64,000 nucleotides of DNA, taken from positions 18,539 to 82,538 of the forward strand of contig JBAQLU010000249.1 of the NCBI GenBank assembly GCA_049302065.1, written 5' to 3'. This DNA is from Thermodesulfovibrionales bacterium. Lineage in GTDB: Bacteria > Nitrospirota > Thermodesulfovibrionia > Thermodesulfovibrionales > SM23-35. The notes under the pieces are model-generated. The model was not told the DNA's origin. It saw only the letters and a list, made by a program, of their open reading frames with translations, and made no database searches. The position numbers and the translations under genes were made by a program. Below are positions 429-47,971 of the stretch, piece after piece; positions within the stretch are counted from its first letter, which is position 1, and each line of letters opens with the position of its first letter.

Positions 429-680
429 TTACCTTCCATAACAAATCTTTTCAGAAATTGTGCCTACAGACATAAATCAAAATAACTTTGTAGTGTACCT
501 TTAAGCAAAGTATTTTGAAAAGTTATTTCGGGTAATTTGATTCCTGTTATTTGCATTTGACACATTATTTTAGCAAATGCTGATATTAATTATATGGCAG
601 TACAAAAAGGAATCTCGACAAAACCAGGCCATTCGAGAAGGAGGTAAAAATTAGCGGTTTTTTTAATTAATTTCTTATGG

Positions 681-9497: not shown

Positions 9498-10829
9498 TTA
9501 GAATGTTCGTTTGCTGAGAGTACCGTCAGTAACAACTGCGCCGTGATAGTGACATCTGCTACAGGTACGACATGCCCAATCATCAGCTAATATTCCATGA
9601 CACATCATGGCTGTGCCTCCGCAACCTTGGGCTAAAGTAACATCAGCATGATGAGTGTTCCACCAATTATTTGACCCAGGAGTATTCTCCTGATGACAGC
9701 GCCGGCAGAGGTATCCTAATTCTTTATTAAGTAGTGTGGTAAGTGTAGTTATTTGTCCGCTAAGTGCCCCTCCGTTTACCTCTTGCCTGATTAAAACAAC
9801 ATTCGGAGCGCCATGAGGCTCATGGCAATCTGTACACGCAAGCACTTTATTTGTCGTAGAATAAGGACTTAATATTCTTGCCGCACCATCATCCCCATCA
9901 GATACACCTATTCCATGTTTTTCAACATTCCAGTCAACGGGCCTCAACCATCTACTAAGTGTAGTGCTCCACACACTATTGGCAGTGCTGGTATGGCAAT
10001 CTGTACAAAATGTAACATAGTCTGGTAGTATTGATGGATCTGAGGAAGGAGAGTTATTTGGCTCATAGTTTGTCGAAGCATACCAATATGGAGCCTGATA
10101 GCCGCCTGTATAATCACTCATCTTCTCACCATCGCCCCACAGATTACCGTGATCGCTCGGTCTTGATATTGCAGACTTAGTTGTGTCGAAAGAACCAGAA
10201 GGTTTGCCACAGCTTCTTCGTGCAATATGGATATTATGGCAGCCAGAACATGGATTGCTGTCAGATGGGAAGTTGGTGAATGTTTTGGTACCAGAAAGGC
10301 CAGTGATGAGCCTCCATATATCATACAAATTATGGTAAGACAAACCATTAAATGCATCGAAGATATTATTTGGGGTAGCATCTGGATTTCCTCCAAACGT
10401 AATACTATAGCTGTAATTGCTAAAAGAAGGACTCTGGAGGGTACCTATACTGATATGGCAGTAAAAGCAGACACTGTCATTTTGGATATAAGGGTTCATA
10501 GTTTTTGACGTATTAAAATTATTTGCTAAAAGGCAGTATTTATCAGGGCCTCCAGTTGGGTTAGGCTCAGATCCTCCTATGCTCGCATGCTGCTCATGGC
10601 AGTGGACACAGTTCCCTTTTGAATAACCAAAAGAAGTAAGGCTTGTACGGTTGACCCCATAGGTGCTATTCCCGTGGGAGGAATTGAGATAAGGACCTGA
10701 TATGGCCTTGTCAGGATACAATAACCAGATAAAAGAGCAGATAGCTAAGAGCAGAGAGCTAAAAGCCAAGAGCTTAGAGCTCAGAGTGAATTTCTGAGAT
10801 TTTTTATTAAACCACTTATTCTTCAACAT
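9498..10829 (-). CDS. Multiheme c-type cytochrome (7 canonical CXXCH plus a possible atypical C-X6-CH)
   Basis: 443-aa ORF. Motifs are CVHCH, CFYCH, CSGCH, CTDCH x2, CRRCH and CSRCH, plus CGGTAMMCH. The h-region of the signal peptide (LSSKLLAFSSLLLAICS) is encoded by the heptamer array at 10743-10786. Confidence 0.85.
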   Translation of the reverse strand: MLKNKWFNKKSQKFTLSSKLLAFSSLLLAICSFIWLLYPDKAISGPYLNSSHGNSTYGVNRTSLTSFGYSKGNCVHCHEQHASIGGSEPNPTGGPDKYCLLANNFNTSKTMNPYIQNDSVCFYCHISIGTLQSPSFSNYSYSITFGGNPDATPNNIFDAFNGLSYHNLYDIWRLITGLSGTKTFTNFPSDSNPCSGCHNIHIARRSCGKPSGSFDTTKSAISRPSDHGNLWGDGEKMSDYTGGYQAPYWYASTNYEPNNSPSSDPSILPDYVTFCTDCHTSTANSVWSTTLSRWLRPVDWNVEKHGIGVSDGDDGAARILSPYSTTNKVLACTDCHEPHGAPNVVLIRQEVNGGALSGQITTLTTLLNKELGYLCRRCHQENTPGSNNWWNTHHADVTLAQGCGGTAMMCHGILADDWACRTCSRCHYHGAVVTDGTLSKRTF

Positions 10830-10909
10830 AAATCCTCTTTTTTATCAAAATTTGTTTATTTAAAATGATTTTGTCCTTATTCTCTCTTTCGTTTGCTCTA
10901 TGCTCTTTT
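10743..10909 (-). repeat. Heptamer-array inverted pair (AGAGCNN at 10743-10786; NNGCTCT at 10881-10909) flanking the start of cytochrome gene 9498..10829
   Basis: Read directly. The first arm is agctaag agcagag agctaaa agccaag agcttag agctcag. The opposite arm, tctctctttcgtttgctctatgctctttt, begins right after the stop of the upstream gene. Confidence 0.8.
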
Positions 10910-12088
10910 CTAATTCTTTGATGTATGACATACATTGCATCCATTTGTCTGACCGTTTCCCGGCCAGCCTTTATAATCCCATCTCATCATTTTGCAATAT
11001 GGCGATGCATGTGCCCGATGGCATGAAAGGCACGTAACCAGGTCTGTACCCAGCGTCACGGTACCGCTTGGTCCTGTCCAGCCACTCAAGCTAGGTCTTG
11101 CCACTGGAACTAATGGGTCATATGTACCTGTTCCACCGGAAGCACCGAAAGCGCTGGCGTATTCACCGGAATTTGGTATCAGCGCATCTGAAGGATGGCG
11201 AAACCATGGGCTCTGACCGCTTACTGTGTTGTCCTGTATATGAAAGTTCCTGTGGCATCCACAGCAAAAAGCTGTCATCGTATGATTCGTAAGACTTACT
11301 TGAGTAATCTTGCTAACAGAACCATCCCCTAAATACTCATTATGATCGCTTGCATTATAGGTGTATTGCCAGTCTTTATCTTCAATCCCTTCAACTCCGT
11401 GGCCATAAGTCGGCAGAGGTTCATGTCCCGCCAGAAAACGATACCATCCACCTGCTTCTCCTACCACCGTTGCCGAATCGTCTGCGTGATGATGTGGATA
11501 TACATGACAACCCTGACAACCGTACGTTCCAGCCAATACTCCAGCATCACTTTTTTCAGCTAAAGATTTATGGCAATTTTTTGTACTGCAGTTTTCCTCG
11601 CCAGATTTTCCCGGAGCAGCGGTAAGAGCTGGGTCTTTTTCATTCAAAAAAACATTATGACCTTTTGTGTCATCGGTCTTCACCCAGTAGAAATTGCCTG
11701 CGGCAAGCCCTTTTGTCGCATTATAGGATGGCTCAGTACTGTTGTAGACAATAGGAGCCATTGTGATAGGATCTTGCCAGGTAGTTCCGTCTGTCTTCGA
11801 ATGGCAACCTAAACATGATCCGCGCAGGAGGGATCGCTTAGTGTCTGTATCAGTCTCACTAGGAGCCAGATATTGCATATGGGCACCATTCTGACTGTTA
11901 TGCATGGTGTGGCATTTGAAACATTCACCGGTAACTTTTGCTTCTAATGGCAAGGTGTAACCCAACAAAACCATAATTATCGAGCACAAAGCAAGGCATA
12001 AAGAAGAAAAATGAAAAGTGCGTAACCTTTTTGCGTTTTTTTGCTCATGTTCTGCTTTCAGACACATTTTTTTTATGTTATGCTCCAC
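10910..12088 (-). CDS. OmcS-like multiheme cytochrome, paralog 1 (6 CXXCH + 1 CX4CH)
   Basis: 392-aa ORF. Motifs CFKCHTMHNSQNG, AAGNFYWVKTDDTKGHNV, FCCGCHRNFH..WFRHP, CLSCHRAHASPY and GCNVCHTSKN resemble my memory of G. sulfurreducens OmcS (CEGCHTMHNS, GGDFGWVK, KGHNIV, CLSCHRAHASGF, CNKCHAKD). The protein is paralogous to 25409-28939. Confidence 0.8.
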   Translation of the reverse strand: MEHNIKKMCLKAEHEQKNAKRLRTFHFSSLCLALCSIIMVLLGYTLPLEAKVTGECFKCHTMHNSQNGAHMQYLAPSETDTDTKRSLLRGSCLGCHSKTDGTTWQDPITMAPIVYNSTEPSYNATKGLAAGNFYWVKTDDTKGHNVFLNEKDPALTAAPGKSGEENCSTKNCHKSLAEKSDAGVLAGTYGCQGCHVYPHHHADDSATVVGEAGGWYRFLAGHEPLPTYGHGVEGIEDKDWQYTYNASDHNEYLGDGSVSKITQVSLTNHTMTAFCCGCHRNFHIQDNTVSGQSPWFRHPSDALIPNSGEYASAFGASGGTGTYDPLVPVARPSLSGWTGPSGTVTLGTDLVTCLSCHRAHASPYCKMMRWDYKGWPGNGQTNGCNVCHTSKN

Positions 12089-12367: not shown

Positions 12368-13687
12368 TTACTTCTTATGACATTGGATACAAAGCTGTCT
12401 CTTTCTGTCAAAATAGAGCATAAATTCAGCCTTTGATGAATGCATGCTGTGACAGGTAATGCAGGTAATTGGCTGACCATTTCGTGGATCTTTCACATCC
12501 TGTCCGAGCGGATGCGTTACTTTATGCTGCTGAGTATGGCATCTTGAACATGTCTGAATCTTATCTGCTTTAAAATAAAGGGGATTAAGAGAATGAGGAG
12601 GAATATGACATTCAAAGCATCTTCTGTCTTTCACAGGAACGCACTTGATCGATTTCAATGCCTTCTCCATGAGGATCGTCCTCTTCTCCGTATCTTTGTG
12701 ACAGGTATAGCACAGTTGAGATTCCTTCACTGTCAGGTTCTTCCTTTTTGACGCATGGTAGCTATGACACAGCGAGCATCCACCTTTTTCATCATTGATA
12801 TGAACATCACCCTCTTTGAGTTTGGTAGTGTCCTTCTTATGACAACTAAAGCATAAATCCTTGCCTGATATCTTAGTAGTTATCTTCTTATCAGCTACAA
12901 TCGGGTTATGGCATTGTTCACATTTTTTATCCAAAAAAGCTGTGTGGCCATATGGGCCGAGAAGTCCGCTGGTGTTGGAGGAATGTCCACTGTGGCATTC
13001 ATCGCATTTCAGCTTTTCAATAGCTAAGGTTATGGAGACGTTACCCGCCTTACACTTCGCTGCATGACAGCTTTTACATAATTTGTTGGGGTTATCACGG
13101 ATCTGGTTCTCTTCTGAAGATGCATGTGGATCATGACAAGATGAACATTCACCATTCTTGAAAGGAACATGCACATAAGATTTCTTTAATTGCTCTTTTA
13201 AAGCATCGTGACAATCCCAGCAGAGATCCTTTTGCACCTTTACCAAAAGACGTTTATTATCTCCACTGTGTGCAAAATGGCAATCTGTGCACACCCCTTT
13301 TTTGATTGCAAGATGTACAAAATCCTTCTTGAGTGCTTTTTTGATCCCCTCGTGGCAACCGAGGCACAAGGAATTGATATCTTCCTTTACCAGTCCCTTC
13401 ATATTACCTGCATGTATGTTATGACAGGCGATACATTTACCGTCCTTGAAGGGGAAATGGACATAACTGCGGGACAGGCTTTCCTTTAATTTTACATGGC
13501 ATCGGTAGCAAAGATCCGGAGCTTTTTCCTTAAGATCGCCCTGAGCGGATGCGAAAACAGCGAATAGCGTAGAGCTAAGAGCAAAGAGTACGAAGCATAT
13601 AGCATATAGCATATAGCGTAGAGCGTAGATTTTTTGCTCCGTGCTCTTTGCTCTCTGCTCTCTGCTCTCTGCTTTTTGCTTATTCAT
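12368..13687 (-). CDS. Hexadecaheme c-type cytochrome (c7/c3-type repeated CXXCH-pair architecture)
   Basis: I counted 16 CXXCH, with repeated (Y/F)VHxPFKxGxCxxCH units. I prefer the ATG at 13687 (MNKQKAESREQRAKS...), which overlaps the upstream stop as cATGAATAA, over the track start at 13714. Confidence 0.9.
   Translation of the reverse strand: MNKQKAESREQRAKSTEQKIYALRYMLYAICFVLFALSSTLFAVFASAQGDLKEKAPDLCYRCHVKLKESLSRSYVHFPFKDGKCIACHNIHAGNMKGLVKEDINSLCLGCHEGIKKALKKDFVHLAIKKGVCTDCHFAHSGDNKRLLVKVQKDLCWDCHDALKEQLKKSYVHVPFKNGECSSCHDPHASSEENQIRDNPNKLCKSCHAAKCKAGNVSITLAIEKLKCDECHSGHSSNTSGLLGPYGHTAFLDKKCEQCHNPIVADKKITTKISGKDLCFSCHKKDTTKLKEGDVHINDEKGGCSLCHSYHASKRKNLTVKESQLCYTCHKDTEKRTILMEKALKSIKCVPVKDRRCFECHIPPHSLNPLYFKADKIQTCSRCHTQQHKVTHPLGQDVKDPRNGQPITCITCHSMHSSKAEFMLYFDRKRQLCIQCHKK
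13558..13680 (-). repeat. Heptamer-array hairpin element (arm 13558-13629, T6 loop, arm 13636-13680), fully inside the N-terminal coding region of the 16-heme gene
   Basis: The sequence reads ...agcgtagagctaagagcaaagagtacgaagcatatagcatatagcatatagcgtagagcgtaga tttttt gctccgtgctctttgctctctgctctctgctctctgctttttgct. It includes two perfect 3-unit runs (gcatata x3 and gctctct x3). Confidence 0.85.
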
Positions 13688-15702: not shown

Positions 15703-17379
15703 TTACTGCTTAAATTTTTTTTCAATAGCCCGAATCTCTTCTTCATTTATCTTTATCTCAGCATCTTTCTTCAGTTTATCTATATACCTGTTTAATGTGG
15801 TGTTCACCTGTTCATTTACGTATGCTTTATGCACGTTATTCTTAACCTTGGCATATTCTTCGATCACTTCGCCTGTTATATCCTGTATTCTGAATATTTT
15901 ATAAAGTGATTCAATCTCGATTATCGGGCTTGTATCTCCTGCTTTCATGGAATCTATAATCTCCCCAAGAGGTTTAGGAAGTTCAGCCTTTGTAAACAAT
16001 CCCGCATCTCCGCCCTTTTCAGTTGCTGAATCTGCAGACTTTCTTTTTGCCAGCCATAAAAAATCAGCGCCTTTCTGCAAGCTGTCTAATATTTCCTGAG
16101 CCTCTTCTCGAGATTTTACTGTAATCTGTTGGATCTTATAACGGACAGGTTTGATAAAGCTTTTCTGATGTGTTGCATAGTACTCTTCTAAATTCTTACC
16201 TGTTACAACGATCTGAGGGATTATTACTCTCTTAATAAACGTATTCTTGAGAAGTTGATTCTCATAACGATATGCCATTTTCTTTAAGCCGGGCTTCATT
16301 TCGTAATGTCTGCTGAGTGCCTCATTGTCTATCACCTTGCGGTCAATCCAGCTCTCAAGGATATTCTCTTTCGATATTTTGGGAGAAGGTTTAATCATAG
16401 CCATAAAATCTTCAACAGTTAAAACAGCGCCATTTACCTCGACTAAATGTCTTTTATCCTTAGACCATTTTTCCCTCTCGCTATCACCATCCAGTTTAAT
16501 AGCAGAGAGAAGCTTCTCATCAATCTTTATGTTTGCCTTCTCACGAAGGTATTTCAGATATTCATCACTACGCTCTTTTTCCCTTTGTTTCCTGATGGCT
16601 TTCTGCAGGCTGCCTTTTACCTTTTCGAATTCCTCGTCCGGCGCCTCTTTTCTGCTCATTAACTTTACTATGTAAAATTTTTCTGACAATTTGATAATAT
16701 CACTGACTTCATCAGGTTTTAAAGGGGAAACAGCTTTTTGTATTTCAGTCGATAGAGAACCTCTTGTAAAAACAACTTCACTCTCATCTTTCTTGGATGG
16801 ATAGGTTGAGTATTTCTGAGCAAGCTCCTTGAAATTTTTTCCATTCTTAATTTGTTCTAAGATTTCTATAGCTTTCTCCTCCAATGATATTTCTATGATG
16901 CCCAGGGTAAACCGCTCATAATTTCTCTTGTAATAGTCTTTAATTTCTTCTTCTGTTATGAAAACCTTTTGCACAATCTCCTCATCATGAAGTATGACAA
17001 CAGATTCCCTCAGGATATATGCCTCAATGGCCTGTTTCACCTCAGGATACTGATCCATACCTGCATTGCGGGCCTCATGAATAATTAATCTATCATCTAT
17101 TAGCTTTTGAACATATTGTGATAAATTTAAGGCGCCTGCTGATGAAAGGTCTTCTCTGCGGTGAGCTATATTTAAAGCATATTTAAGATCTTCTTCTGTT
17201 ACAGGTTCACCATCAACAACCGCCAGTACTGCCTCCTTTTGTGAAAGCGATGCACAGCCACCCCAAAAAATCAGCAAACAGCATAGAGCGCAGAGCATAG
17301 AGCTTAAAACATAGAATTTTTTACTCTTAGCTCTTAGCTCTTTGCTCTTAGCTCTTTGCTCTTTGCTCTTTATCTCCAT
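15703..17379 (-). CDS. Peptidyl-prolyl cis-trans isomerase, SurA/PrsA/PpiD-like lipoprotein with two parvulin-type domains
   Basis: 558-aa ORF with a lipobox-like LIFWGGC. Two parvulin-like segments are present (...NGKNFKELAQKYSTYPSKKDE... and ...KGADFLWLAKRKSADSATEKGGDAGLF...). The ATG overlaps the upstream stop (aaATGGAGATAA). Confidence 0.85.
   Translation of the reverse strand: MEIKSKEQRAKSKELRAKSKKFYVLSSMLCALCCLLIFWGGCASLSQKEAVLAVVDGEPVTEEDLKYALNIAHRREDLSSAGALNLSQYVQKLIDDRLIIHEARNAGMDQYPEVKQAIEAYILRESVVILHDEEIVQKVFITEEEIKDYYKRNYERFTLGIIEISLEEKAIEILEQIKNGKNFKELAQKYSTYPSKKDESEVVFTRGSLSTEIQKAVSPLKPDEVSDIIKLSEKFYIVKLMSRKEAPDEEFEKVKGSLQKAIRKQREKERSDEYLKYLREKANIKIDEKLLSAIKLDGDSEREKWSKDKRHLVEVNGAVLTVEDFMAMIKPSPKISKENILESWIDRKVIDNEALSRHYEMKPGLKKMAYRYENQLLKNTFIKRVIIPQIVVTGKNLEEYYATHQKSFIKPVRYKIQQITVKSREEAQEILDSLQKGADFLWLAKRKSADSATEKGGDAGLFTKAELPKPLGEIIDSMKAGDTSPIIEIESLYKIFRIQDITGEVIEEYAKVKNNVHKAYVNEQVNTTLNRYIDKLKKDAEIKINEEEIRAIEKKFKQ
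17276..17371 (-). repeat. Heptamer-array hairpin element (arm 17276-17316, T6 loop, arm 17323-17371) encoding the N-terminus of the PPIase
   Basis: The sequence reads gcatagagcgcagagcatagagcttaaaacatagaa tttttt actcttagctcttagctctttgctcttagctctttgctctttgctcttta. In sense orientation it translates to KSKEQRAKSKELRAKSKK-FYVLSSMLCALCCLL. Confidence 0.85.
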
Positions 17380-19204: not shown

Positions 19205-19846
19205 TTAAAATAATGAACCGATAGACTCCCTTACTACCTTCCCGGCAGCTTCACTCAGTGAAGGTCCTTCTGAACCAAAATGTCTGGTCCAGAAGTCAGG
19301 GCCGCCGGTTGTATGACGCACCGACCAGACAATATTTCCTGAATTTACCTCAATCATTCTTAAATTTATGGTAACCTCCGGATAACTGACCGAAATACCC
19401 CTGCCTGTCCCGAATGCCTCTACAGATCCTAATATTACTGCTTCTACATTTAAAGCTTTTCCGATCTCCTGGATTTCTGAAACTTTTACAGATCCGAGGG
19501 ACTTGATCTTCATTTCCCTAAAAAGTCTTGTTACCTCACCCGGCTCAATCACATCAACATCCCTTGAAAGAAGTTCTGTAATTGCTATTCTCCTTATCTT
19601 TTCACCAGCATAATCATCCTGAGTAAAGTTTTCAAAAGGTAAAATAGCTACTTTTTTGACGCTTTCAACATCAGTTTTTGGACGGACAAAATGTGTGGGT
19701 CCACATCCTTGTATAAAAAACAGCAAAAAACATATGGCATAGAGCATAGAGCATAGAGCTAATCCCCCCACCCCCCCTTTTGTAAAGGGGGGTAAGGGGG
19801 GATTAACGTATAGAGTTTTTTTCATTTTGTTCTTTGCTATTTTCAT
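19205..19846 (-). CDS. Small lipoprotein, paralog of 18568..19149
   Basis: 213-aa ORF with lipobox IQGC and motifs VAILPFENFTQDDYAG and GGPDFWTRHFGSEGPSLSEA. The N-terminal ~33 codons run through a heptamer array and a GC palindrome. The true start is uncertain (ATG at 19846, 19825 or 19747). Confidence 0.6.
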   Translation of the reverse strand: MKIAKNKMKKTLYVNPPLPPFTKGGVGGLALCSMLYAICFLLFFIQGCGPTHFVRPKTDVESVKKVAILPFENFTQDDYAGEKIRRIAITELLSRDVDVIEPGEVTRLFREMKIKSLGSVKVSEIQEIGKALNVEAVILGSVEAFGTGRGISVSYPEVTINLRMIEVNSGNIVWSVRHTTGGPDFWTRHFGSEGPSLSEAAGKVVRESIGSLF

Positions 19847-19887
19847 TTTACTCTCTACTCTTAGCCCTTTGCTCTTCGCTCTTTGCT
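19731..19887 (-). repeat. Heptamer-array inverted pair (19731-19761 and ~19850-19887) with a nested GC-rich palindrome (19761-19803)
   Basis: The first arm is catatggcatagagcatagagcatagagcta. The palindrome is aatcccccccaccccccctttt g taaaggggggtaaggggggatt. The second arm is actctctactcttagccctttgctcttcgctctttgct, beginning just after the OMP stop codon. Confidence 0.8.
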
Positions 19888-19891
19888 ATTG

Positions 19892-22216
19892 TTACCAGAA
19901 TCTGCACGTCAGATTACCTCCGATATTATATGTCTTCAACTTTTTTTCTTTCTCATCACGTGTATAGATATAGTTTAACTGAAGATCTGAAAATTTCGTT
20001 ATGTACCACATTACATAGCTGCTCAGTGAATGAACAGTATTTGGTCCTGGTTCTGTTTTACTATGCTGGTAGCTTAAATTCATCCTGATTGCCGGCAAAA
20101 AAAGCCAGTCAATAATCATTCCTTCCGAGATATTTGTATCTCCATCCGTATCTGATACCTTAATATTACCCGAAAGATTGATAAACCTTCCAGGTCGATA
20201 GGTTAAAATAAAATAACCGTCCTTTGAAGTTGTGGAAGTGGTGCCTGATGTTCGTGTAAGACCAAACGAAAGATTTCCTGATAGTTTTTGGGTAAGGCGG
20301 GCGTCAAGCGTATTTCTTATATATTTTGTAGAAGTTCCGGTCTTTTCAGTAATTGTTGTTTCAGAAATTTGACGTTCTGTCGGAAAACTCTCTGATCGTG
20401 TATAACCAATATCAGTAATCATGTTGACATCCCTGTATAAGCGGGAACCGATTGTCAGGAAATACAGGGTATTCATGGATTGTTTCTCATCGAAACTGTA
20501 ACTGTAGGTTCTGATGAAAGATAAGTTTGTATTAAGTGTCGGCAGAGGAGATGAATTAAAGGTTAAGGAATATGTATCAGACACGATATCGGTTTTACTG
20601 ATATCCGTTTCGTCTTTATTGTCAAATGCTTCATTCCTTTGAAAACGCACTGTTGTTGTCAGCAGCCTGTGGGTAAGCCATGTTGAGCTTATCCCGTAGG
20701 TCCTTGTTATATTGCTTCTTAATTTATTGTCTTCTTCATTTGTAGGTTTTTTGAATATGCTTTGAAATGCACTCCCGATGGAACCCAAAACTGAATCGGG
20801 GTTTTCGTCTGCCTTGTTTAAAAAGTAATTAAGCGAAAAGGTGAGTCTGTTGAAGGGTCTTAAGTTAGCTAACAGGTTAATACCATGCGTAAAGAATGTG
20901 GTGACGTCCGTAATCTTTCCTGACTGTGGTATTACATCCGTACCGAATGCCTCGATTTCCGTCACTAAGACATCATTTATCGAAGCATTTTCCCTATTGA
21001 TCACTCTGAAATATGAACCACTTTGTGGATTAAAAAATCGTATCTCATACCGATAAACCGTATTCAGGATATCAAATGCAGATACTGTTACAGTCTGGAC
21101 AGGTATTTCCGTCCATGTAGCAGGCAGATTAAAGTCACTCAGGTATACCCTCCAGTTGTTTACATTGATGAGATTTGTATCTGATCTAACATCTTTATTT
21201 ACATAAATAAATAGTGTATCTACAGGTTTTGTTGTTGAAAATAATTGAATACCTATGTTATGGAATTTATTTCCGTTCTGGCCGATATTAATCGTACCTG
21301 CAGCAGTAGTTACCGGGACATTGTAAATATTATCAATCAGTGCATTGGCGGGGATCAATGTATCAACGTCTGGTTGGAGTTGTGTCCCCAGTCCATACCT
21401 GCCGGATGAGGGTGTACGCTCAAAAGGCACATTGCCGGTCTGAGTAGCATACTGGTCATTTTTGTTCCGGACATAATTTCCCTGATAGCCGGCTGATACA
21501 TTGGCTCTGCCGCTCCAGAAAGACTTATTGTAACCAAGGCTGTATAATGCATTAAGGCTGTTGTTGATTGTTTTTGAAATTGTACCTATCGGTGTTTTAC
21601 TCTCATTTCGTGTGTATGTGAGGTTATATGATATTTTTATATCTTTGTACAATACATCATACCAGGAACTACCTGAAAATCTATTATTAGTGGTATCAAT
21701 TTTCCTTTCTGAAAGATGGTCGTAATCCTTCTGCCTGTCAAACTGAAGTGACAGGGAAGGTAAATCATAAGGTCTCACATTCAAGCGTGCATAATAAAAT
21801 TCAGTGGTTTTTCTGCTGTCATCACTCAGATTTGCCGTTGACCACTGCTCCAGGCGCCGCGTTCCGACATCCAGACCATAAATAGGGTTTCGAAAAGAAA
21901 GATCTAATGCAGGCTCTATCGCCCTCTGGTAAGTCTTTGTTGTTTTATCCTGAGAATCGGTAGTATGCGAGTTTGTAAGATTAGTCCTGAGATATAGCTG
22001 ATAAGAGATCAGCGGGGTGATTGATTTGTCCAAACGAAGATAATAATTCTGATTAAGATTATCTGAGGTCTGACTCCTTTTGTCATCTTCGAACTGTTTC
22101 ATATAAGTATAATTTATATTAAACCATGCACTTGGGCCTTCAGCATAAGCTGATGAACAAAAAAAAAGCATAAAGCATAGAGCGAAGAGCATAGAGCGAA
22201 GAGCATAGAGTTTCAT
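19892..22216 (-). CDS. Large outer-membrane beta-barrel protein with an inserted discoidin-like jelly-roll domain
   Basis: 774-aa ORF with a signal peptide ending AYA/EG. Alternating amphipathic strands run throughout and the C-terminus is ...NLTCRFW (aromatic terminal residue typical of OMPs). Residues ~262-427 (ALIDNIYNVP...NWRVYLSD...GSYFRVIN...VLVTEIEAFG) look like the jelly-roll modules of the giant cytochrome. Confidence 0.75.
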   Translation of the reverse strand: MKLYALRSMLFALCFMLFFCSSAYAEGPSAWFNINYTYMKQFEDDKRSQTSDNLNQNYYLRLDKSITPLISYQLYLRTNLTNSHTTDSQDKTTKTYQRAIEPALDLSFRNPIYGLDVGTRRLEQWSTANLSDDSRKTTEFYYARLNVRPYDLPSLSLQFDRQKDYDHLSERKIDTTNNRFSGSSWYDVLYKDIKISYNLTYTRNESKTPIGTISKTINNSLNALYSLGYNKSFWSGRANVSAGYQGNYVRNKNDQYATQTGNVPFERTPSSGRYGLGTQLQPDVDTLIPANALIDNIYNVPVTTAAGTINIGQNGNKFHNIGIQLFSTTKPVDTLFIYVNKDVRSDTNLINVNNWRVYLSDFNLPATWTEIPVQTVTVSAFDILNTVYRYEIRFFNPQSGSYFRVINRENASINDVLVTEIEAFGTDVIPQSGKITDVTTFFTHGINLLANLRPFNRLTFSLNYFLNKADENPDSVLGSIGSAFQSIFKKPTNEEDNKLRSNITRTYGISSTWLTHRLLTTTVRFQRNEAFDNKDETDISKTDIVSDTYSLTFNSSPLPTLNTNLSFIRTYSYSFDEKQSMNTLYFLTIGSRLYRDVNMITDIGYTRSESFPTERQISETTITEKTGTSTKYIRNTLDARLTQKLSGNLSFGLTRTSGTTSTTSKDGYFILTYRPGRFINLSGNIKVSDTDGDTNISEGMIIDWLFLPAIRMNLSYQHSKTEPGPNTVHSLSSYVMWYITKFSDLQLNYIYTRDEKEKKLKTYNIGGNLTCRFW

Positions 22217-22282
22217 GCTCTTTTTCCTTTGCTCTTAGCTCTTAGCTCATTGCTCATTGCTCTTTGCTCATTGCTCTTCGCT
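22167..22282 (-). repeat. Heptamer-array hairpin with the OMP start codon in the loop (arm 22167-22210, loop tttcat = ATGAAA, arm 22217-22282)
   Basis: The sequence reads agcataaagcatagagcgaagagcatagagcgaagagcatagag tttcat gctctttttcctttgctcttagctcttagctcattgctcattgctctttgctcattgctcttcgct. Confidence 0.85.
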
Positions 22283-23936
22283 AATAAGGAAACATCGCTA
22301 TCCCATACGGTTTTTTCCCTACAGGGATAACCTTTTCTTCCCTGCTCGTAGTTTTATCTATTACCGAGACATTATCCGAACCCCTATTGACTACGTAAAT
22401 CTTTCTACCTTCGGGATCTAAGATTAAGGATCTTGGAGAATTCCCTACCGTGATTGTTCCCATTACCGGTGCTATGGTTGTTTTAACCGTGCTTAATGCT
22501 TCGGAAAATGGCCTAATGATCATTATCTCGCCGGAGATCTCCTTTAATAAATAGATTCTGTCAAGATCAGGGTCAGAGATAATCCCTACAACAGAAGTCC
22601 CGACATTTGTAATAGAACTGACAGCTCCGGGTCTATTAATAATCTGAATAATATCAATAACCGAGAGATTGTCATAATTATAATTACCTACATAAACCTT
22701 TGCCCTTTGATAATCGGCTGCAATCGCTATTGGTCTCCAGTCAACACTTAATTGCATAATTCCATCAACCCTGCTGTTATGAATATCCATTCTTATAATC
22801 GAGACATCCCTGGAATTCTTATTCGCAACATATACATTGAAAAACTTCTCACGATAATTTCTTAATAAAAGGAGATCATCAAAGCTGAGAAATCTTGAAC
22901 CTGACAGACTCTCAATCGGTGGGTCTGCGGCGATTGCGATAGGTCCACTCCCTACATTTATTTTTTCAATCTCCTGATAGGTTGAGGTATCAATAACAGA
23001 GACGTTGTCAGAACCATAATTTGTTACAAATATAAGTTCTTTTTTAGGAGATATCTTTGTAACAGCTACCCCTTCTGGTTCCCTGCCAAACCTTATCGGT
23101 ATTTCCATCTCAACCTTATGGACAGTAGGGTCTATAACGGAAATACTGTTTGAGCCTGAATTAGCCACATAAACCCGTGGATATTCTTTAACCTGGCTCA
23201 CTGCAACGCCCCTCGGTTTCTTTCCCACCATTATAGTTGCAACGATTTCACCTGATTGTCTGTTAATGACAGAGACATTATTTGAACCTTCATTCGTCAC
23301 ATAGATAAGCAAAGTACTTAATTCCGGGACCTGACCTTTGACAGCGAATACAGGATTGAAAAGGTATCCGTCTGCAACGGAAGCATCGGCGTTCCAGTTT
23401 AAAAATAATGACGTGTTCTGGTTTCTTGTTATCGTAATATCTATACTTATCTCTATCCCTTCGGGTGGAAGCGCCAGATTTGCTGTTTTGTCTTTTTTCC
23501 GGATCAAAGCTTGTTTCACTATGAGCTGAAGTTTCTTGTATCTGCCCTCGGGCAGATATCTCTCACCCAGACGCACCTGACGACCCGTAAGAGATATTGA
23601 ATTTATATTCACCGGGGTATTCATAATCTCTCTGTATGTACCGTCTTCTGACAGAATATTGACTGCTGCAAGTTCAAATGTTAAATCCGTTGAGGTTATA
23701 TCAGGCCCTTTCAGAAGAACAGTAATCTGCCCATTGGTTGTACCCGGAGACTCAATGTACTCCTGAACAGATGCACACCCCACCCCGAAAACAAGCAAAG
23801 AGCAAAGAGCTAATAGCAAAGAGTTCTTAGCAAAGAGCTTAGAGCGAAGAGCAAAAAGTTTAGAGCCGCCGACTAAAAGCCTAAAGCGAATAACTAAATT
23901 TTGAGATTTTTTATAAAGCCGCTCATCATTCGACAT
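22281..23936 (-). CDS. Lipoprotein with an N-terminal DUF4382-like domain and a YVTN-family beta-propeller
   Basis: 551-aa ORF with lipobox VFGVGC. Six YVTN-type blades are visible: YVTNEGSNNVSVI, YVANSGSNSISVID, FVTNYGSDNVSVID, YVANKNSRDVSII, YVGNYNYDNLSVID and YVVNRGSDNVSVID. Confidence 0.85.
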   Translation of the reverse strand: MSNDERLYKKSQNLVIRFRLLVGGSKLFALRSKLFAKNSLLLALCSLLVFGVGCASVQEYIESPGTTNGQITVLLKGPDITSTDLTFELAAVNILSEDGTYREIMNTPVNINSISLTGRQVRLGERYLPEGRYKKLQLIVKQALIRKKDKTANLALPPEGIEISIDITITRNQNTSLFLNWNADASVADGYLFNPVFAVKGQVPELSTLLIYVTNEGSNNVSVINRQSGEIVATIMVGKKPRGVAVSQVKEYPRVYVANSGSNSISVIDPTVHKVEMEIPIRFGREPEGVAVTKISPKKELIFVTNYGSDNVSVIDTSTYQEIEKINVGSGPIAIAADPPIESLSGSRFLSFDDLLLLRNYREKFFNVYVANKNSRDVSIIRMDIHNSRVDGIMQLSVDWRPIAIAADYQRAKVYVGNYNYDNLSVIDIIQIINRPGAVSSITNVGTSVVGIISDPDLDRIYLLKEISGEIMIIRPFSEALSTVKTTIAPVMGTITVGNSPRSLILDPEGRKIYVVNRGSDNVSVIDKTTSREEKVIPVGKKPYGIAMFPY

Positions 23937-24289
23937 AATTCCTCGAGTTTTAACAAGATTGTTTGTTTAACGTGATTTTGTATATATTCTCTTTTTTCGA
24001 AAAGAATCATCATGTTTGCATTTTCGAAACAAGATCTTTTAGCAATATTTAAAAATTGAACAAATTCCTTTTTGGAATTACTTCCCGAACCTTCTGCTAT
24101 ATTATTTGATATTGATAGAGCAGCTCCTCTTAACTGCTCAGCAAATTTATATAACTTTTTCCTTTCAAGATCATCAGAAATATCAAACAAATTTCCCGCA
24201 ATCTCTATTGATTTTTTCCATATCTCTAAATTCTCAAATCTAAACATCTGTATTTCCTACTCTTTGCTCTATGCTCTTTGCTCTTCGCT
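23793..24289 (-). repeat. Split heptamer-array pair (long arm 23793-23892, short opposite arm 24259-24289) bracketing the four-helix-bundle gene
   Basis: The long arm is aagcaaagagcaaagagctaatagcaaagagttcttagcaaagagcttagagcgaagagcaaaaag.... The opposite arm is actctttgctctatgctctttgctcttcgct. The 354-nt ORF 23894..24247 lies between them. Confidence 0.75.
23894..24247 (-). CDS. Four-helix-bundle protein (23S rRNA intervening-sequence protein family)
   Basis: 117-aa ORF: FENLEIWKKSIEIAGNLFDIS...FAEQLRGAALSISNNIAEGSGSNSKKEFVQFLNIAKRSCFE. The FxxLxVWQKA...QLxRAAxSIxxNIAEG...FL..A.GS..E pattern is diagnostic of this family. Confidence 0.85.
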   Translation of the reverse strand: MFRFENLEIWKKSIEIAGNLFDISDDLERKKLYKFAEQLRGAALSISNNIAEGSGSNSKKEFVQFLNIAKRSCFENANMMILFEKREYIQNHVKQTILLKLEELCRMMSGFIKNLKI

Positions 24290-25271
24290 ATTCATTTGCT
24301 TTAAACACCTGTATCCTGTCATTAAAGGTATCGGCAACAAGTACCCTGCCCTGAGAGTCAACAGCTATATCCCTCGGATACTGAAACCATCCTTCACCCC
24401 AGCCCAGGCCGCCAAATTCAAATAAATATTTCCCATCCTTATCATAGGCAGATACAGTATGACGCATATAATCTACCACATACATCCTGCCATTGCGATT
24501 ATCCACACCAACTGCCCGAGCCCGGCTTAGCTTACCCTTGCTTCCTCCCTTTTGCCCGAATTTAAAAAGAAATTTTCTATTTTCATCATATACATAGATG
24601 TGTCCTTCCTCCTCGCTTACAAGATATATCCTGCCTTCTTTATCCACAGTCACGTAGTCTAATTTCACCTTCTTCCCTTCTTCCTCGGGTGATAAGATCT
24701 CCAATAGCTCCCCCTGATTATTCAGAATCAGAATGCCTGAAAAGTATGACCCGGCTACGTAAATATTTCCATTTTTATCCGTAGACAGGCGATAGGGCAT
24801 AAATGAATCGGCTCCCTCAAAACCCTTTAAATAGATATCACGCTCCCATTTAAAACATGCATTAAAAACCGAAATCTTATGTCTGGGATTCTCCTTTGTT
24901 GCGCTATGAGCAACATAAAGGTTACCTTCAGCATCTACAGTCAAGCCCTGTGGTGTTTCAATACCGTACTTTTTGCTAAGGGTAAAGACGGGGAAAAAAT
25001 CTGATGTATATATTATTATCTTAGTTTGACTAATAACATAAATCTCATTACTGATCGGGTCTGAGAACACAAAAGAAGGGAAGTGTATCTTACCCCCTTC
25101 CTCATCCTCAGTTATAACATCAAGATAGGTTACCGAGGTAACGGCCTGCTGTGCAACGAGTTTGTGAGGAATACATAGCACATAGCAAAGAGCAAGGAGC
25201 AAACAGCTAAAAGCTAACAAAGTAGCACGTTTTTTTCTCTCAAGATCATTTAAATTCTCAAACCTAAACAT
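24288..25271 (-). CDS. Secreted NHL-repeat six-bladed beta-propeller protein
   Basis: 327-aa ORF. NHL blades include LYVAHSATKENP, IYVAGSYFSGILILNNQG, IYLVSEEEGHIYVYDENRKFLFKFG, MYVVDYMRHTVSAYDKDGKYLFEFG and VLVADTFNDRIQVF. The first 14 codons are a remnant of a four-helix-bundle gene. Confidence 0.85.
   Translation of the reverse strand: MFRFENLNDLERKKRATLLAFSCLLLALCYVLCIPHKLVAQQAVTSVTYLDVITEDEEGGKIHFPSFVFSDPISNEIYVISQTKIIIYTSDFFPVFTLSKKYGIETPQGLTVDAEGNLYVAHSATKENPRHKISVFNACFKWERDIYLKGFEGADSFMPYRLSTDKNGNIYVAGSYFSGILILNNQGELLEILSPEEEGKKVKLDYVTVDKEGRIYLVSEEEGHIYVYDENRKFLFKFGQKGGSKGKLSRARAVGVDNRNGRMYVVDYMRHTVSAYDKDGKYLFEFGGLGWGEGWFQYPRDIAVDSQGRVLVADTFNDRIQVFKANE
25173..25226 (-). repeat. Single heptamer array encoding the h-region of the NHL protein signal peptide
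   Basis: The array reads acatagcacatagcaaagagcaaggagcaaacagctaaaagctaacaaagtagc. In sense orientation it translates to ATLLAFSCLLLALCYVLC. Confidence 0.75.
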
Positions 25272-25408
25272 CTTAATCTCCTATATGCCATTTACTATCC
25301 TTAGCTTGGACAGGTATGATCAATTATGTCAATTATTTGCTCTTAAAAAAATAAGATAAGGAGAGCAGAAATTTCTGCTCTCCTTATCTTCAGTGTCTCA
25401 AGTTCTAA

Positions 25409-26759: not shown

Positions 26760-27896
26760 CTATTGGTTTTTTTTGGTATGACAGGCAAGGCAGCCCTTTT
26801 TTGTCACATTCCGAGTATCCATTTTTGAATAATCCCATCTCAGGATATCAGAATATTGGCTTGCATGTGACCTGTGACAGGAAAGGCACATAAGTATACT
26901 GTTTGAATCAACAACTTCTTCTCCACCTGTGGGCTGTCCAAAAGCAACAGGGGCTTCGAGACTGTACGTAACATAACCCTGATACTCAGAACTTGCAAAA
27001 CCACCATGTACAGTTGCAAAGGCAATATCAGCAGGATGCCTGCGCCATATGGAGTTATAAGCTTGCCCAACCTCCCTGCTGCCGCCAAGATTGGGATTGG
27101 GATGGAACTTGGCATGACATTCGCCGCAGAGATAACTTATGGTATCCATGGTATCATGAGCGATATCACCCTTGTAGCCGTTATGATTATTGATAGTGGC
27201 CAGATATTCCCAGTCTCTATGTTCCGTGCCTTTTATTCCGTAAAGAAAGCGATAACTTTTGCCAACTGTTGAGCCATCGATAATACGGTCATCTGAATGG
27301 TGCGCCCCATATAGAGATTGATAAAGGTTTTCAATTGTCCTGTTCCCATGACATCCCCATGTTCCTGCACAGGTAAGCTGCTGCTGGCCAGGCCAATATG
27401 CAGGCCCGGTTCCTCCCGGTATCAGTACATTCTTCATAAATCCAGGAGGGACATCCATTGGAGGGTTTTCCTGGCGGGAGATGCCTTTGATATTGTGCCC
27501 CTTTGAATAATCAGGATTATATTCATCTGCAACGTAATAAAAATTCCCGCCTGCCAGATCATCGTTTTGCAGATGATGCAGTATCTGAGGAATCCTGGTC
27601 TTTCCAGTGGTGATGATGCTTTTTGTGCCGTTCGGATTCCGGCCATGACAGCCGATACAGCCGCCTTGCGTGAGGGCAGGAAATGGTCCCTGACGATCTC
27701 CATAGGTAACCTCCTTGCCTTCATAACTGTAATGCATGCTATGGCAATCTTTGCATTTCCCTTTTACCCTTGCATCAACAACAGAAGCAAAGAGCATATA
27801 GCATAGAGCAAAGAGTAAAATATAGAAAACCCTTGCTCCTTGTTCTTTGCTCTTTGCTCTTAGCTCTTTGCTCTTGGCTATTTTCCTGTATGGCAT
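26760..27896 (-). CDS. OmcS-like multiheme cytochrome, paralog 3 (5 CXXCH + 1 CX5CH)
   Basis: Track ORF 26760..27905. I prefer the ATG at 27896 (MPYRKIAKSKELRAKSKEQ...). Motifs are CKDCHSMH, CIGCH, AGGNFYYV..KGHNI, CAGTWGCHG, YRFL, CGECHAKFH..WRRHP, CLSCHRSHAS, ILRWDY and GCLACHT. Confidence 0.8.
   Translation of the reverse strand: MPYRKIAKSKELRAKSKEQGARVFYILLFALCYMLFASVVDARVKGKCKDCHSMHYSYEGKEVTYGDRQGPFPALTQGGCIGCHGRNPNGTKSIITTGKTRIPQILHHLQNDDLAGGNFYYVADEYNPDYSKGHNIKGISRQENPPMDVPPGFMKNVLIPGGTGPAYWPGQQQLTCAGTWGCHGNRTIENLYQSLYGAHHSDDRIIDGSTVGKSYRFLYGIKGTEHRDWEYLATINNHNGYKGDIAHDTMDTISYLCGECHAKFHPNPNLGGSREVGQAYNSIWRRHPADIAFATVHGGFASSEYQGYVTYSLEAPVAFGQPTGGEEVVDSNSILMCLSCHRSHASQYSDILRWDYSKMDTRNVTKKGCLACHTKKNQ
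27783..27879 (-). repeat. Heptamer-array hairpin element (arm 27783-27826, loop aaaccct, arm 27834-27879) encoding the N-terminus of OmcS-like paralog 3
   Basis: The sequence reads agaagcaaagagcatatagcatagagcaaagagtaaaatataga aaaccct tgctccttgttctttgctctttgctcttagctctttgctcttggct. It translates to AKSKELRAKSKEQGARVFYILLFALCYMLFA. Confidence 0.85.
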
Positions 27897-44030: not shown

Positions 44031-44140
44031 ATAATCAGAATACAGAACTCAGAATACAGAGCACAGATTACAGAACACAGATTTTAATTTCTTATTAGAC
44101 TTCTTTGGTCTATGCTCTGTGTTCTGTCTTCTGTGATCTC
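44031..44140. repeat. Inverted heptamer arrays (CAGANNN x7 / NNNTCTG x4) in the acsC-acsB intergenic gap
   Basis: The sequence reads cagaata cagaact cagaata cagagca cagatta cagaaca cagattt ...loop... tctatgc tctgtgt tctgtct tctgtga tct. Confidence 0.85.
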
Positions 44141-47785: not shown

Positions 47786-47971
47786 ATGAAGAAGATTATA
47801 GCATTAGTTTTATCATTAATGTTATTGGTGGCATTTACCGTTGGTTGCAAGCCGGCAGAAACACCAAAACCTGAGGCACCAGCACCGGCACCGGCAACAG
47901 CACCAGCACCGGAGAAGCCAGCTGAGGCACCAGCACCGGCACCAGCACCGGAGAAACCAGCACATAAATAA
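47786..47971 (+). CDS. Small Pro/Ala-rich lipoprotein
   Basis: The sequence is MKKIIALVLSLMLLVAFTVGC (lipobox VGC) followed by PEAPAPAPATAPAPEKPAEAPAPAPAPEKP. A strong SD (GGAAGGAGGTG) precedes the ATG at 47786, and a terminator follows. Confidence 0.6.
   Translation: MKKIIALVLSLMLLVAFTVGCKPAETPKPEAPAPAPATAPAPEKPAEAPAPAPAPEKPAHK

Follow-up and report, generated by a model that had tools for sequence, protein, structure and literature searches.

A four-helix-bundle gene between inverted heptamer arrays in a cytochrome operon, and arrays of the same period around its homologues in other phyla

Open reading frames (ORFs) of the S23p type occur in intervening sequences (IVSs) of 23S rRNA in Leptospira, Coxiella burnetii, Xanthomonas and Brucella, and an ORF-containing IVS is regarded as a selfish, horizontally spread element. 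The protein family PF05635/TIGR02436 is among the commonest bacterial families of unknown function; since 1993 it has been known only as an ORF within rRNA intervening sequences. Here we describe a member of this family, a four-helix-bundle (4HB) gene, located in an operon of periplasmic cytochrome and beta-propeller genes, between two of its cistrons, in a genome of Thermodesulfovibrionales (Nitrospirota). The stretch of DNA analysed, hereafter called the window, has a length of 64,000 nt (GenBank assembly GCA_049302065.1, contig JBAQLU010000249.1, positions 18,539 to 82,538). The gene lies between two complementary arrays of tandem heptamers, and inverted flanks with a 7-nt period are a hallmark of PF05635/TIGR02436 genes across phyla.

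In the 23S IVS of Coxiella burnetii, tandem GACAGAT heptamers are situated just upstream of the S23p ORF in a copy number that varies among strains, RNase III makes the 5′ cut at the start of the first heptamer repeat, and the IVS RNA is maintained whereas its ORF seems to be in decay (PMC4990558). Genes of the 23S_rRNA_IVP type were found between cas genes (PMC3936711) and also within rRNA insertions of the Candidate Phyla Radiation (bioRxiv 2024.02.27.582315). Tandem heptanucleotides abound in certain genomes: TAACTGA repeats were described in Beggiatoaceae (PMC4679880) and heptanucleotide elements in Geobacter (PMC2700814). In the searchable literature on tandem heptanucleotides we found neither a link to a 4HB gene nor inverted pairing. 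The openly searchable full text (subscription-only papers excluded) yielded no paper linking the whole family to inverted heptamer arrays, and no description of a cassette outside rRNA or of its decay into signal peptides.

The locus and its protein

All genes between 9.5 and 29 kb of the window are on the minus strand, and so are the features of the locus described here. A preliminary description had placed the 4HB gene between two complementary heptamer arms, and all of its coordinates hold. The upstream host gene encodes an NHL-repeat beta-propeller protein (NHL, 24288..25271). The 5′ purine-rich arm (24259..24289), delineated by inverted-repeat search and TRF, reads AGCGAAG AGCAAAG AGCATAG AGCAAAG AGT in the mRNA sense; it begins at 24289, inside the NHL stop codon TAG (24290-24288), as had been proposed for the short arm upstream of the ORF. 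An 11-nt leader, AGGAAATACAG (24248..24258), follows, with a Shine-Dalgarno (SD)-like AGGAAA ahead of the 4HB start codon ATG; its homologue in four related loci (L005, L011, L171 and L176; related loci are given by such numbers) is ACAGAAGATACA. The 4HB gene itself (23894..24247, 117 aa) was assigned to PF05635/TIGR02436 by profile matches and a structure model. One base past its stop codon TAG (23896-23894) begins the 3′ pyrimidine-rich arm (23794..23893), with about 14 heptamers of the CTCTTTG type (CTCTTTG, CTCTTCG, CTCTAAG and others) complementary to the 5′ arm.

The downstream host gene (22281..23936) encodes a YVTN/YncE-type beta-propeller protein with a DUF4382 domain (YVTN), whose N-terminus is made of the 3′ end of the cassette and the pyrimidine array. 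Its probable start lies inside the 3′ end of the 4HB gene in another frame (23934..23944), where an SD-like GAGGAA (23944-23939) is located 4 nt upstream of an ATG (23936-23934). The 3′ arm codes for residues ~15-48 of the YVTN precursor, including the hydrophobic core of the signal peptide (MSNDERLYKKSQNLVIRFRLLVGGSKLFALRSKLFAKNSLLLALCSLLVFGVGC); the precursor translation thus agrees with the earlier claim that the signal peptide of this lipoprotein is encoded in the long downstream arm. The inverted repeat 23794-23824/24259-24289 has a length of 31 nt and is 87% complementary, alternative registers were also returned by the inverted-repeat search, and TRF assigned period 7 to both arms.

An intrinsic terminator with a 17-bp stem and a T run (25353-25390, minus strand) is situated between the gene of a 337-aa cytochrome and NHL and is followed by a TTGACA −35-like box, which makes NHL the probable first gene of the transcription unit to which the cassette belongs. 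An antisense ORF of 117 codons (24072-24425, plus strand), running across the 4HB gene and the 3′ end of NHL, is probably spurious.

Heptamer arrays are frequent across the operon (9-29 kb): the 14-mer AGCAAAGAGCAAAG, with up to 2 mismatches, has 55 copies in the window versus 0.94 expected. The window has a single PF05635/TIGR02436 member. An Rfam scan of the 9-30 kb region of the window matched no family.

The 4HB protein is a canonical member of its family and is under purifying selection. It matched PF05635 with E-value 2.6e-29 (102 bits, cut-off 33.8; residues 5-110 aligned to profile positions 1-106) and TIGR02436 with E-value 2.7e-29 (101.6 bits, cut-off 24), in both cases across the full length; these were the only families matched in Pfam and NCBIfam, and no nuclease or recombinase motif was found there. 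The R...S...N..EG motif described for the family (PMC3936711) is present as QLRGAALSISNNIAEG, and residues R40, S45, N48, N49, I50, E52 and G53 were unchanged across 26 homologues. An exact look-up of the window protein gave no match, and close relatives were used in its place. A homopentameric toroid is a trait of the family; the AlphaFold model made here, of the monomer (pLDDT 96.7), was matched by Foldseek to Xcc0516 (2gsc, TM 0.88) and BT_0352 (2rld, TM 0.83-0.90) and, more distantly, to Avd (TM 0.75-0.84; 4dwl and the ribonucleoprotein of a diversity-generating retroelement (DGR), 8ub7); phmmer gave E-value 4e-9 against 2gsc. The dN/dS ratio was 0.11-0.13 where dS was ~1. No close relatives were found in the viral contigs searched. 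The likeness of the modelled fold to Avd makes binding of the 4HB protein to its own repeat RNA or DNA the leading guess at its role.

Flanking arrays across the family

To see how the arms are distributed among homologues, we sampled 80 loci from species-representative genomes and 80 independent metagenome loci, with 151 4HB genes in the pooled set. The taxa included Nitrospirota, Desulfobacterota, Verrucomicrobiota, Kiritimatiellales, Lentisphaerae, Planctomycetota, Bacteroidota, Ignavibacteriae and Cloacimonadota. A strict detector of period-7 runs recovered only 30 of 81, as it missed degenerate arrays; inverted-repeat scores, lag autocorrelation and a phased RGC pattern were used instead. 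The inverted-repeat score compares 150 nt upstream of a gene with the reverse complement of 150 nt downstream, with a threshold of ≥28; other ORFs of at least 90 aa from the same loci (606 in the genome set) served as controls.

Scores at or above the threshold were obtained for 47% of 4HB genes versus 1.3% of the 606 control ORFs at the genome loci (Mann-Whitney p 2e-26), and for 63% versus 1.6% at the metagenome loci (p 5e-32). In the pooled sets, 87 of 151 4HB genes (58%) reached it versus ~1.5% of neighbouring ORFs. The placement of the window gene could have been a coincidence, a possibility raised with the preliminary description, which was to be judged by other copies of the gene; these are flanked by inverted arrays far more often than their neighbours are. 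The suggestion made there of a gene that targets hairpin loops in general, or is carried by them, is likewise supported by the survey, as inverted 7-nt arrays accompany the family outside rRNA: none of 170 related loci had conserved 23S motifs, and no locus was within 23S rRNA.

Lag-7 autocorrelation of 4HB flanks was 0.41-0.42 versus 0.25-0.31 at lags other than multiples of 7, and controls were flat; upstream flanks had their best lag at 7 or 14 in 73% of cases and downstream flanks in 81%. The heptamer consensus of the arms was R-G-C-D-N-R-G, where positions 6 and 7 are free of the search pattern. With the strict pattern, a purine-type array upstream together with its complement downstream was found for 29-33% of 4HB genes versus 0.2-1.3% of controls, and the opposite polarity for 0-2.5%; the RGC pattern undercounts, as some lineages use other heptamers. 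Since an inverted repeat is identical on both strands, this polarity belongs to the type of hairpin and not to the orientation of the gene. The arms are locus-specific, with a median arm match of 39 within a locus versus 19 in GC-matched pairs taken across loci.

The position of the arrays relative to neighbouring genes was also regular. The purine array started no more than 3 nt from the preceding stop codon in 41% of cases and no more than 10 nt in 60%. In 76 of 90 cases both neighbours had the same direction as the 4HB gene, and the median gaps were ~75 nt. In high-GC phyla the arrays are unable to encode signal peptides, yet they still flank the 4HB gene, and in other phyla the arrays are in non-coding spacers in ~60% of cases. 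ORF-less hairpins with a purine array followed by a pyrimidine array were also seen near 4HB genes in other phyla (26 versus 7 in reverse order, 160 loci).

Complete plasmids of cultured strains have the same arrangement with other heptamers. The 4HB gene is located between (GGGAACA)n and (TGTTCCC)n in a plasmid of Nostoc edaphicum, between (GGGAARA)n and (TTTTCCC)n in a Geminocystis plasmid and between (GGTTYAA)n and (AAACCTT)n in a Riemerella plasmid. As the heptamer sequence differs between lineages, the conserved features are the 7-nt period and the inversion.

Occupied, empty and decayed sites in related operons

The junction between NHL and YVTN is occupied, with both arrays present, in the window and in five related loci, whose 4HB proteins have 98% (L001), 95% (L005), 93% (L011), 82% (L009) and 80% (L091) identity to that of the window. 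It had been considered that orthologous operons might always have the gene without flanking arrays; this was contradicted, as six of six distinct carriers have them. At other junctions the picture differs. In L171-L173 a 91%-identical 4HB gene is situated between p342-like and SurA-like genes, where the window has an empty hairpin (17372-17273), and in L012 an 82%-identical one lies between a p392-like cytochrome gene and a p443-like gene, where the window has a weak hairpin (10911-10733). L183 contains a 4HB gene of a different subfamily with arms of its own, (GTCAYTA)n/(TRATGAC)n, between p213- and p193-like genes. Comparison of cassettes at different junctions showed homology from the leader (ACAGAAGATACA-ATG) through the stop codon, ending within the arrays.

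The comparison with insert-free orthologous operons, suggested along with the preliminary description, could be made for L181 (a contig of 3.58 Mb) and L184. In both, NHL is directly followed by YVTN, and 4HB gene, purine array and hairpin are all missing; these bare junctions had self inverted-repeat scores at background (22 and 14). The p342-SurA junction exists in three states: bare (L181 and L184), with an empty hairpin (the window and L183) and occupied (L171).

Synonymous divergence (dS) from the window was determined for the 4HB gene and three host genes. For L005 it was 0.116 in the 4HB gene, with 0.84 in NHL, 1.30 in YVTN and 1.47 in p774; for L011, 0.117 with 1.00, 1.29 and 1.92, respectively; for L001, 0.031 with 1.30, 0.32 and 0.16. 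The 4HB gene was therefore ~10-fold less diverged than most flanking genes. A run of 280 identical nucleotides was found inside the ORF between the window and L005, whose flanks are 71-86% identical. The simplest reading of the low dS and of this run would be a recent recombinational exchange of the cassette between lineages. Taken together, these comparisons indicate that the cassette is mobile on evolutionary time.

Several further observations concern the same operons. The mosaic of dS values for NHL, YVTN and p774 along L001 versus the window points to frequent recombination among populations. In L012 (1340-1900) the pyrimidine array is duplicated, with identical 30-nt copies on either side of the SD and ATG of the downstream gene; a complete small hairpin is located upstream of the 4HB leader, and the 4HB start codon is ACG, which may mean an inactive copy or one with its start codon further downstream. 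Other small selfish genes are present at junctions of this operon (L001 7970-8700; L009 2430-3300; L183 1344-1929 and 5716-6000): a GIY-YIG ORF with palindromes (GTCATTCCCGCGAAAGCGGGAATCCAG) like the repetitive extragenic palindromic (REP) elements in L001, HepT/MNT pairs and RelE/antitoxin-like ORFs. The GIY-YIG gene of L001 and the toxin-antitoxin genes of L009 and L183 were checked for heptamer arms and have none; the arms are thus specific to 4HB genes and not a property of any inserted gene.

Two loci contain cassettes with internal deletions. The start codon and first 14 codons of NHL in the window (25173..25271, minus strand) are a fossil of another 4HB cassette. The NHL start ATGTTTAGGTTTGAGAATTTA (25271-25251) equals the 4HB start at 20 of 21 nt, with 0 matches expected by chance. 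Then come NDLERKK, which agrees at six of seven positions with DDLERKK (4HB residues 24-30), and a pyrimidine array (25207-25173). The signal peptide of NHL, MFRFENLNDLERKKRATLLAFSCLLLALC, is thus composed of the fossil 4HB start, NDLERKK and the pyrimidine array, and the same arrangement is present in L183. The other case is the gene of a TPR protein in L001 (minus strand, 1479..673; 10800-10970 of the reverse complement), whose N-terminus is a miniature cassette with a purine array, a leader, the first 22 nt and the last ~35 nt of the 4HB ORF and a pyrimidine array; ~290 nt are missing from the interior. These two internally deleted copies outline a path from an occupied to an ORF-less hairpin. 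Their structure suggests that empty hairpins are decayed cassettes, and cassette remnants appear to have been recruited as N-termini or signal peptides of host proteins.

The window contains at least six ORF-less hairpins of the same type, all on the minus strand, and the purine arm of each starts in or beside the stop codon of the preceding gene. At the junction of YVTN and the 774-aa gene (22165..22282; dG −50.4, z −4.1), the 5′ arm runs from the YVTN stop codon, the start codon is in the loop and the 3′ arm encodes the signal peptide. The hairpin at 17273..17372 (z −7.0) is fully translated as the SurA-like signal peptide MEIKSKEQRAKSKELRAKSKKFYVLSSMLCALCCLLIFWGGC. Two more, recognized by repeats and folding, are located at 13573..13680, translated from ATG 13687 that overlaps the upstream stop codon, and at 27786..27883, translated from ATG 27896 as a cytochrome signal peptide. 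A hairpin at 19737..19887 (dG −65, z −7.6) has a nested G/C-rich palindrome in its loop, and a weak one with the same heptamer type is situated between the genes of a 392-aa cytochrome and a 443-aa protein (10733..10911). Folding of all but the last predicted long imperfect stems, with dG between −39 and −65 kcal/mol and z between −3.8 and −7.6. The preliminary description had seen the 4HB ORF in the place of a loop that is only 6-7 nt at other loci; the place is indeed that of the loop, whereas the loop length is not constant and ranges from ~5 to ~80 nt.

Three of these hairpins are wholly translated (13553-13687, 17251-17379 and 27768-27896, minus strand), with an ATG that overlaps or adjoins the upstream stop codon. 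Their charged, Lys/Arg/Glu-rich n-region comes from the purine arm (SKEQRAK...) and their hydrophobic core from the pyrimidine arm (LFALCSL...); a charged stretch and then a hydrophobic one arise naturally from an inverted repeat, which here codes for the entire signal peptide. Translation of the arms is a feature of this AT-rich lineage.

The cassette also seems to bring along a portable start of translation for the displaced gene. The ATG at 23936 opens YVTN in the carriers checked wherever it is conserved (L001-L011 and L174-L176; it is not anchored in L091 and L092, the most divergent carriers), and the same cassette ATG opens the SurA-like gene in L171. The downstream frame is open despite differences in array length (YVTN of 551-584 aa; 467 aa in L171). 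In a 100%-identical YVTN protein (P0121) from a metagenome-assembled genome of Thermodesulfovibrionales, PGAP starts the gene at a TTG 39 codons after the ATG at 23936. In orthologues with no cassette (L184, 6030-6060; L183, 6060-6095) the YVTN signal peptide is encoded by another tandem heptamer, (TTTACTG)n, with no complementary arm.

Some repeats of other kinds were also seen. The G/C-rich palindrome CCCCCCTTACCCCCC...GGGGGGGTGGGGGG (19765-19810, minus strand), located in a hairpin loop as mentioned above, is read in frame in the n-region of the signal peptide; a palindrome of the same kind is present in L091 (2380-2440) between the purine arm and the 4HB gene, and it looks like a second small repeat family landing in heptamer-hairpin loops. 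A hairpin of another heptamer, CAGAACA/TGTTCTG (44036-44134, minus strand; dG −38.7, z −6.1), is part of the 5′ untranslated region of a gene for a cytoplasmic protein (ATG 44017) and has no signal peptide linked to it. Tandem GGCACC/GGCACCAGCACC repeats occupy 47875-47964 of the window (TRF score up to 125).

Interpretation and known systems

We consider it probable that the 4HB ORF, the leader and the inverted arrays make up one mobile, promoter-less intercistronic cassette, the mRNA-borne counterpart of the ORF-containing 23S IVSs. Such a cassette would be transcribed as part of the host operon. Pairing of its arms would give a long imperfect stem with the insert looped out of the transcript, in the way of rRNA IVS stems; the insert would thereby be structurally tolerable and the stem a probable substrate of RNase III. 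Similar arrays could supply the homology for recombinational exchange of cassettes between hairpins; loss of the ORF would leave ORF-less heptamer hairpins elsewhere in the operon, and the 3′ end of the cassette would supply the SD and ATG of the downstream lipoprotein. Predicted folds are compatible with the stem: in both the minimum free energy and the centroid fold of 23785-24300 (minus strand; dG −129 kcal/mol, z −3.2), the 5′ arm pairs with distal 3′ heptamers around the ORF, and an arm stem closing the ORF was also predicted in L009 (z −9.8) and L171 (z −5.9).

A number of points weigh against this interpretation. About 40% of the 4HB genes have no detectable inverted repeat. The bare junctions of L181 and L184 may be ancestral or may result from precise loss. 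The low dS of the 4HB gene could partly reflect constraint on its nucleotide sequence rather than recent transfer; dS values of ~1 in L009, L091 and L092 speak against such constraint. The stem raises difficulties of its own. Arm mismatches show no sense-strand excess of G.U over A.C (93 versus 128) and give no support for selection on sense-RNA pairing; the commonest mismatch of the window arms is a periodic A.A in the middle of the heptamer. The 3′ arm, as well as both arms in three ORF-less hairpins, is within the downstream coding sequence, so cleavage of the stem would part the downstream start codon from the body of its gene, and ribosomes translating the arms would melt the stem. The steps of RNA pairing and RNase III cleavage, plausible as they are, draw on homology with rRNA IVSs, and so does the second suggestion made with the preliminary description, that the heptamer hairpins may be processing elements of the IVS type. 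Excision by RNase III would be awkward at the window locus; it is more plausible for most cassettes in other phyla, given that the arrays there are in non-coding spacers in the majority of cases.

The hairpins might instead have come first, as host elements for signal-peptide coding, translational coupling or mRNA processing, with the 4HB gene as a passenger that homes into their loops, e.g. by array recombination. The window does have at least six ORF-less hairpins of the same type and one 4HB gene, the p342-SurA hairpin is empty in the window and L183 and occupied in L171, the cassette is always exactly between purine and pyrimidine arrays with inter-cassette homology stopping at the arrays, and ORF-less hairpins of the same order exist near 4HB genes in other phyla (26 versus 7). 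Still, L181 and L184, which have no gene at the NHL-YVTN junction, have neither purine array nor hairpin there; the other subfamily in L183 has its own GTCAYTA heptamer and arms in general are locus-specific, as if the arms travel with the gene; the two internally deleted cassettes show a route from occupied to empty; and in high-GC phyla the arrays flank the gene though unable to encode signal peptides. Sequence comparison thus favours joint movement of arms and cassette over insertion into host loops that already existed, and we regard the order hairpin-then-gene as unlikely. Equally doubtful as a full account, and overlapping with the mobile cassette rather than excluding it, is the idea that the arrays are mainly binding sites of the 4HB protein on DNA or RNA, for self-regulation or for copying and spread of the repeat in the manner of RAYT (REP-associated tyrosine transposase) and its REP or REPIN targets, with RNA pairing secondary. 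Strong conservation of the protein (dN/dS ~0.11), the link of gene and arrays across phyla even where the heptamer differs, the fold match to Avd (4dwl, 8ub7), a binder of reverse transcriptase and structured RNA, the presence of a single gene beside many ORF-less hairpins, which recalls an autonomous element and its non-autonomous copies, and the lack of a wobble signature for sense-RNA pairing would all fit. Yet Pfam and NCBIfam show no nuclease or recombinase motif, recognition would need periodicity or shape given that the heptamer varies with lineage and GC content, and in Coxiella the ORF is apparently decaying while the IVS RNA persists (PMC4990558). The 4HB gene is not itself a RAYT: it matched PF05635/TIGR02436 as its sole family and no Y1 HUH transposase.

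Less probable still is a role of the arrays as contingency (phase-variation) tracts, where 7-nt slippage in signal-peptide coding would switch secreted proteins and the 4HB gene would be incidental. Seven is not a multiple of three, the arrays are in coding sequence, their copy number differs between near-identical contigs (L171/172 versus L173, L009 versus L010), and array copy number is variable among Coxiella strains. Against this, every downstream ORF examined that is not ended by a contig edge is in frame despite array-length differences, the degenerate units would slow slippage, and both the inversion and the cross-phylum link with 4HB genes in non-coding spacers would be left unexplained. 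Mere coincidence, i.e. a gene that happens to lie between two of the arrays so frequent in the 9-29 kb operon, is very hard to reconcile with the same layout in 58% of 151 homologues from unrelated taxa versus ~1.5% of controls and with the co-occurrence of arrays and gene at orthologous junctions. We give as little credence to the 4HB protein being the Avd subunit of a DGR. Its fold is like that of Avd (TM 0.75-0.84), which belongs to the same Pfam family; however, a Pfam scan of nine neighbouring genes (cytochromes, beta-propellers, CsgG-like proteins, a peptidyl-prolyl isomerase and one gene with no Pfam match) detected no reverse-transcriptase domain, there is no pair of template and variable repeats (TR/VR) and no long direct repeats of TR/VR type around the gene, sequence and fold are nearer to the Xcc0516/BT_0352 type, and no close relatives were found in viral contigs.

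If nearly all members share the mobile cassette, a very common family of unknown function would gain a defined genetic element with a stereotyped order: upstream stop codon, purine heptamer array, leader, ORF, complementary array and next gene. Tentatively, and as something possible rather than probable, we propose that 4HB genes with inverted 7-nt arrays form a large unrecognised class of mobile intercistronic cassettes across phyla, of which 23S IVSs are the rRNA-borne minority; that an Avd-like pentamer acts on the arrays to move or maintain the element; and that its decay seeds tandem-heptamer hairpins, similar to the short tandemly repeated repetitive (STRR) sequences, exapted in AT-rich lineages as complete signal peptides. 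The rRNA IVSs would then be a special case of a general harmless insertion into transcribed DNA, a possible origin would be at hand for the tandem heptanucleotide repeats of cyanobacteria, Beggiatoaceae and Geobacter, and, as the remnants suggest, pieces of a selfish cassette can become N-terminal signal peptides of the host.

Among described systems the closest is the 23S IVS. In both, terminal inverted repeats form a long stem (a predicted one in our case) whose loop holds a PF05635 ORF, and the Coxiella IVS shares the tandem heptamers on the 5′ side. Unlike the 23S IVS, the element of the window lies between the NHL and YVTN protein genes of an mRNA and not in an rRNA helix, and its arms are longer arrays that abut the upstream stop codon and are translated in this lineage; unlike the decaying Coxiella ORF, the 4HB gene is under clear purifying selection. 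Avd, a pentamer that binds reverse transcriptase and structured RNA, is of the same Pfam family and the same four-helix-bundle fold (Foldseek TM 0.75-0.84), but has only ~16% sequence identity to the 4HB protein, and no reverse transcriptase or TR/VR pair is nearby; we know of no report of Avd genes with heptamer arms.

The remaining parallels concern the repeats. As in REP/REPIN-RAYT systems, a small gene is located between inverted copies of a short repeat that also recurs as ORF-less intergenic hairpins, and, like REPINs, the ORF-less inverted doublets are dispersed (at least six in the window and 26 in 160 other loci). RAYT, however, is a Y1 HUH nuclease while the 4HB protein has no known catalytic motif, and REPs are single palindromes while the arms here are tandem 7-nt units. 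Tandem 7-nt units in spacers upstream of start codons are also typical of STRR-type repeats (cyanobacterial STRR, Beggiatoaceae and Geobacter), and 4HB genes of Nostoc plasmids are flanked by such tandem heptamers. In contrast to the STRR1-3 sequences of heterocyst-forming cyanobacteria, the host here is a member of Thermodesulfovibrionales and the consensus is RGCDNRG; in contrast to all of these reports, which describe direct repeats with no associated gene, the arrays here are inverted around one. Finally, intercistronic RNase III hairpins such as those of the phage T7 early region are likewise long imperfect stems placed exactly between cistrons, but the T7 stems enclose no gene, are not tandem arrays and are not coding, whereas the stem predicted here would close around the 4HB ORF, with arms built of tandem heptamers that in this lineage are translated.

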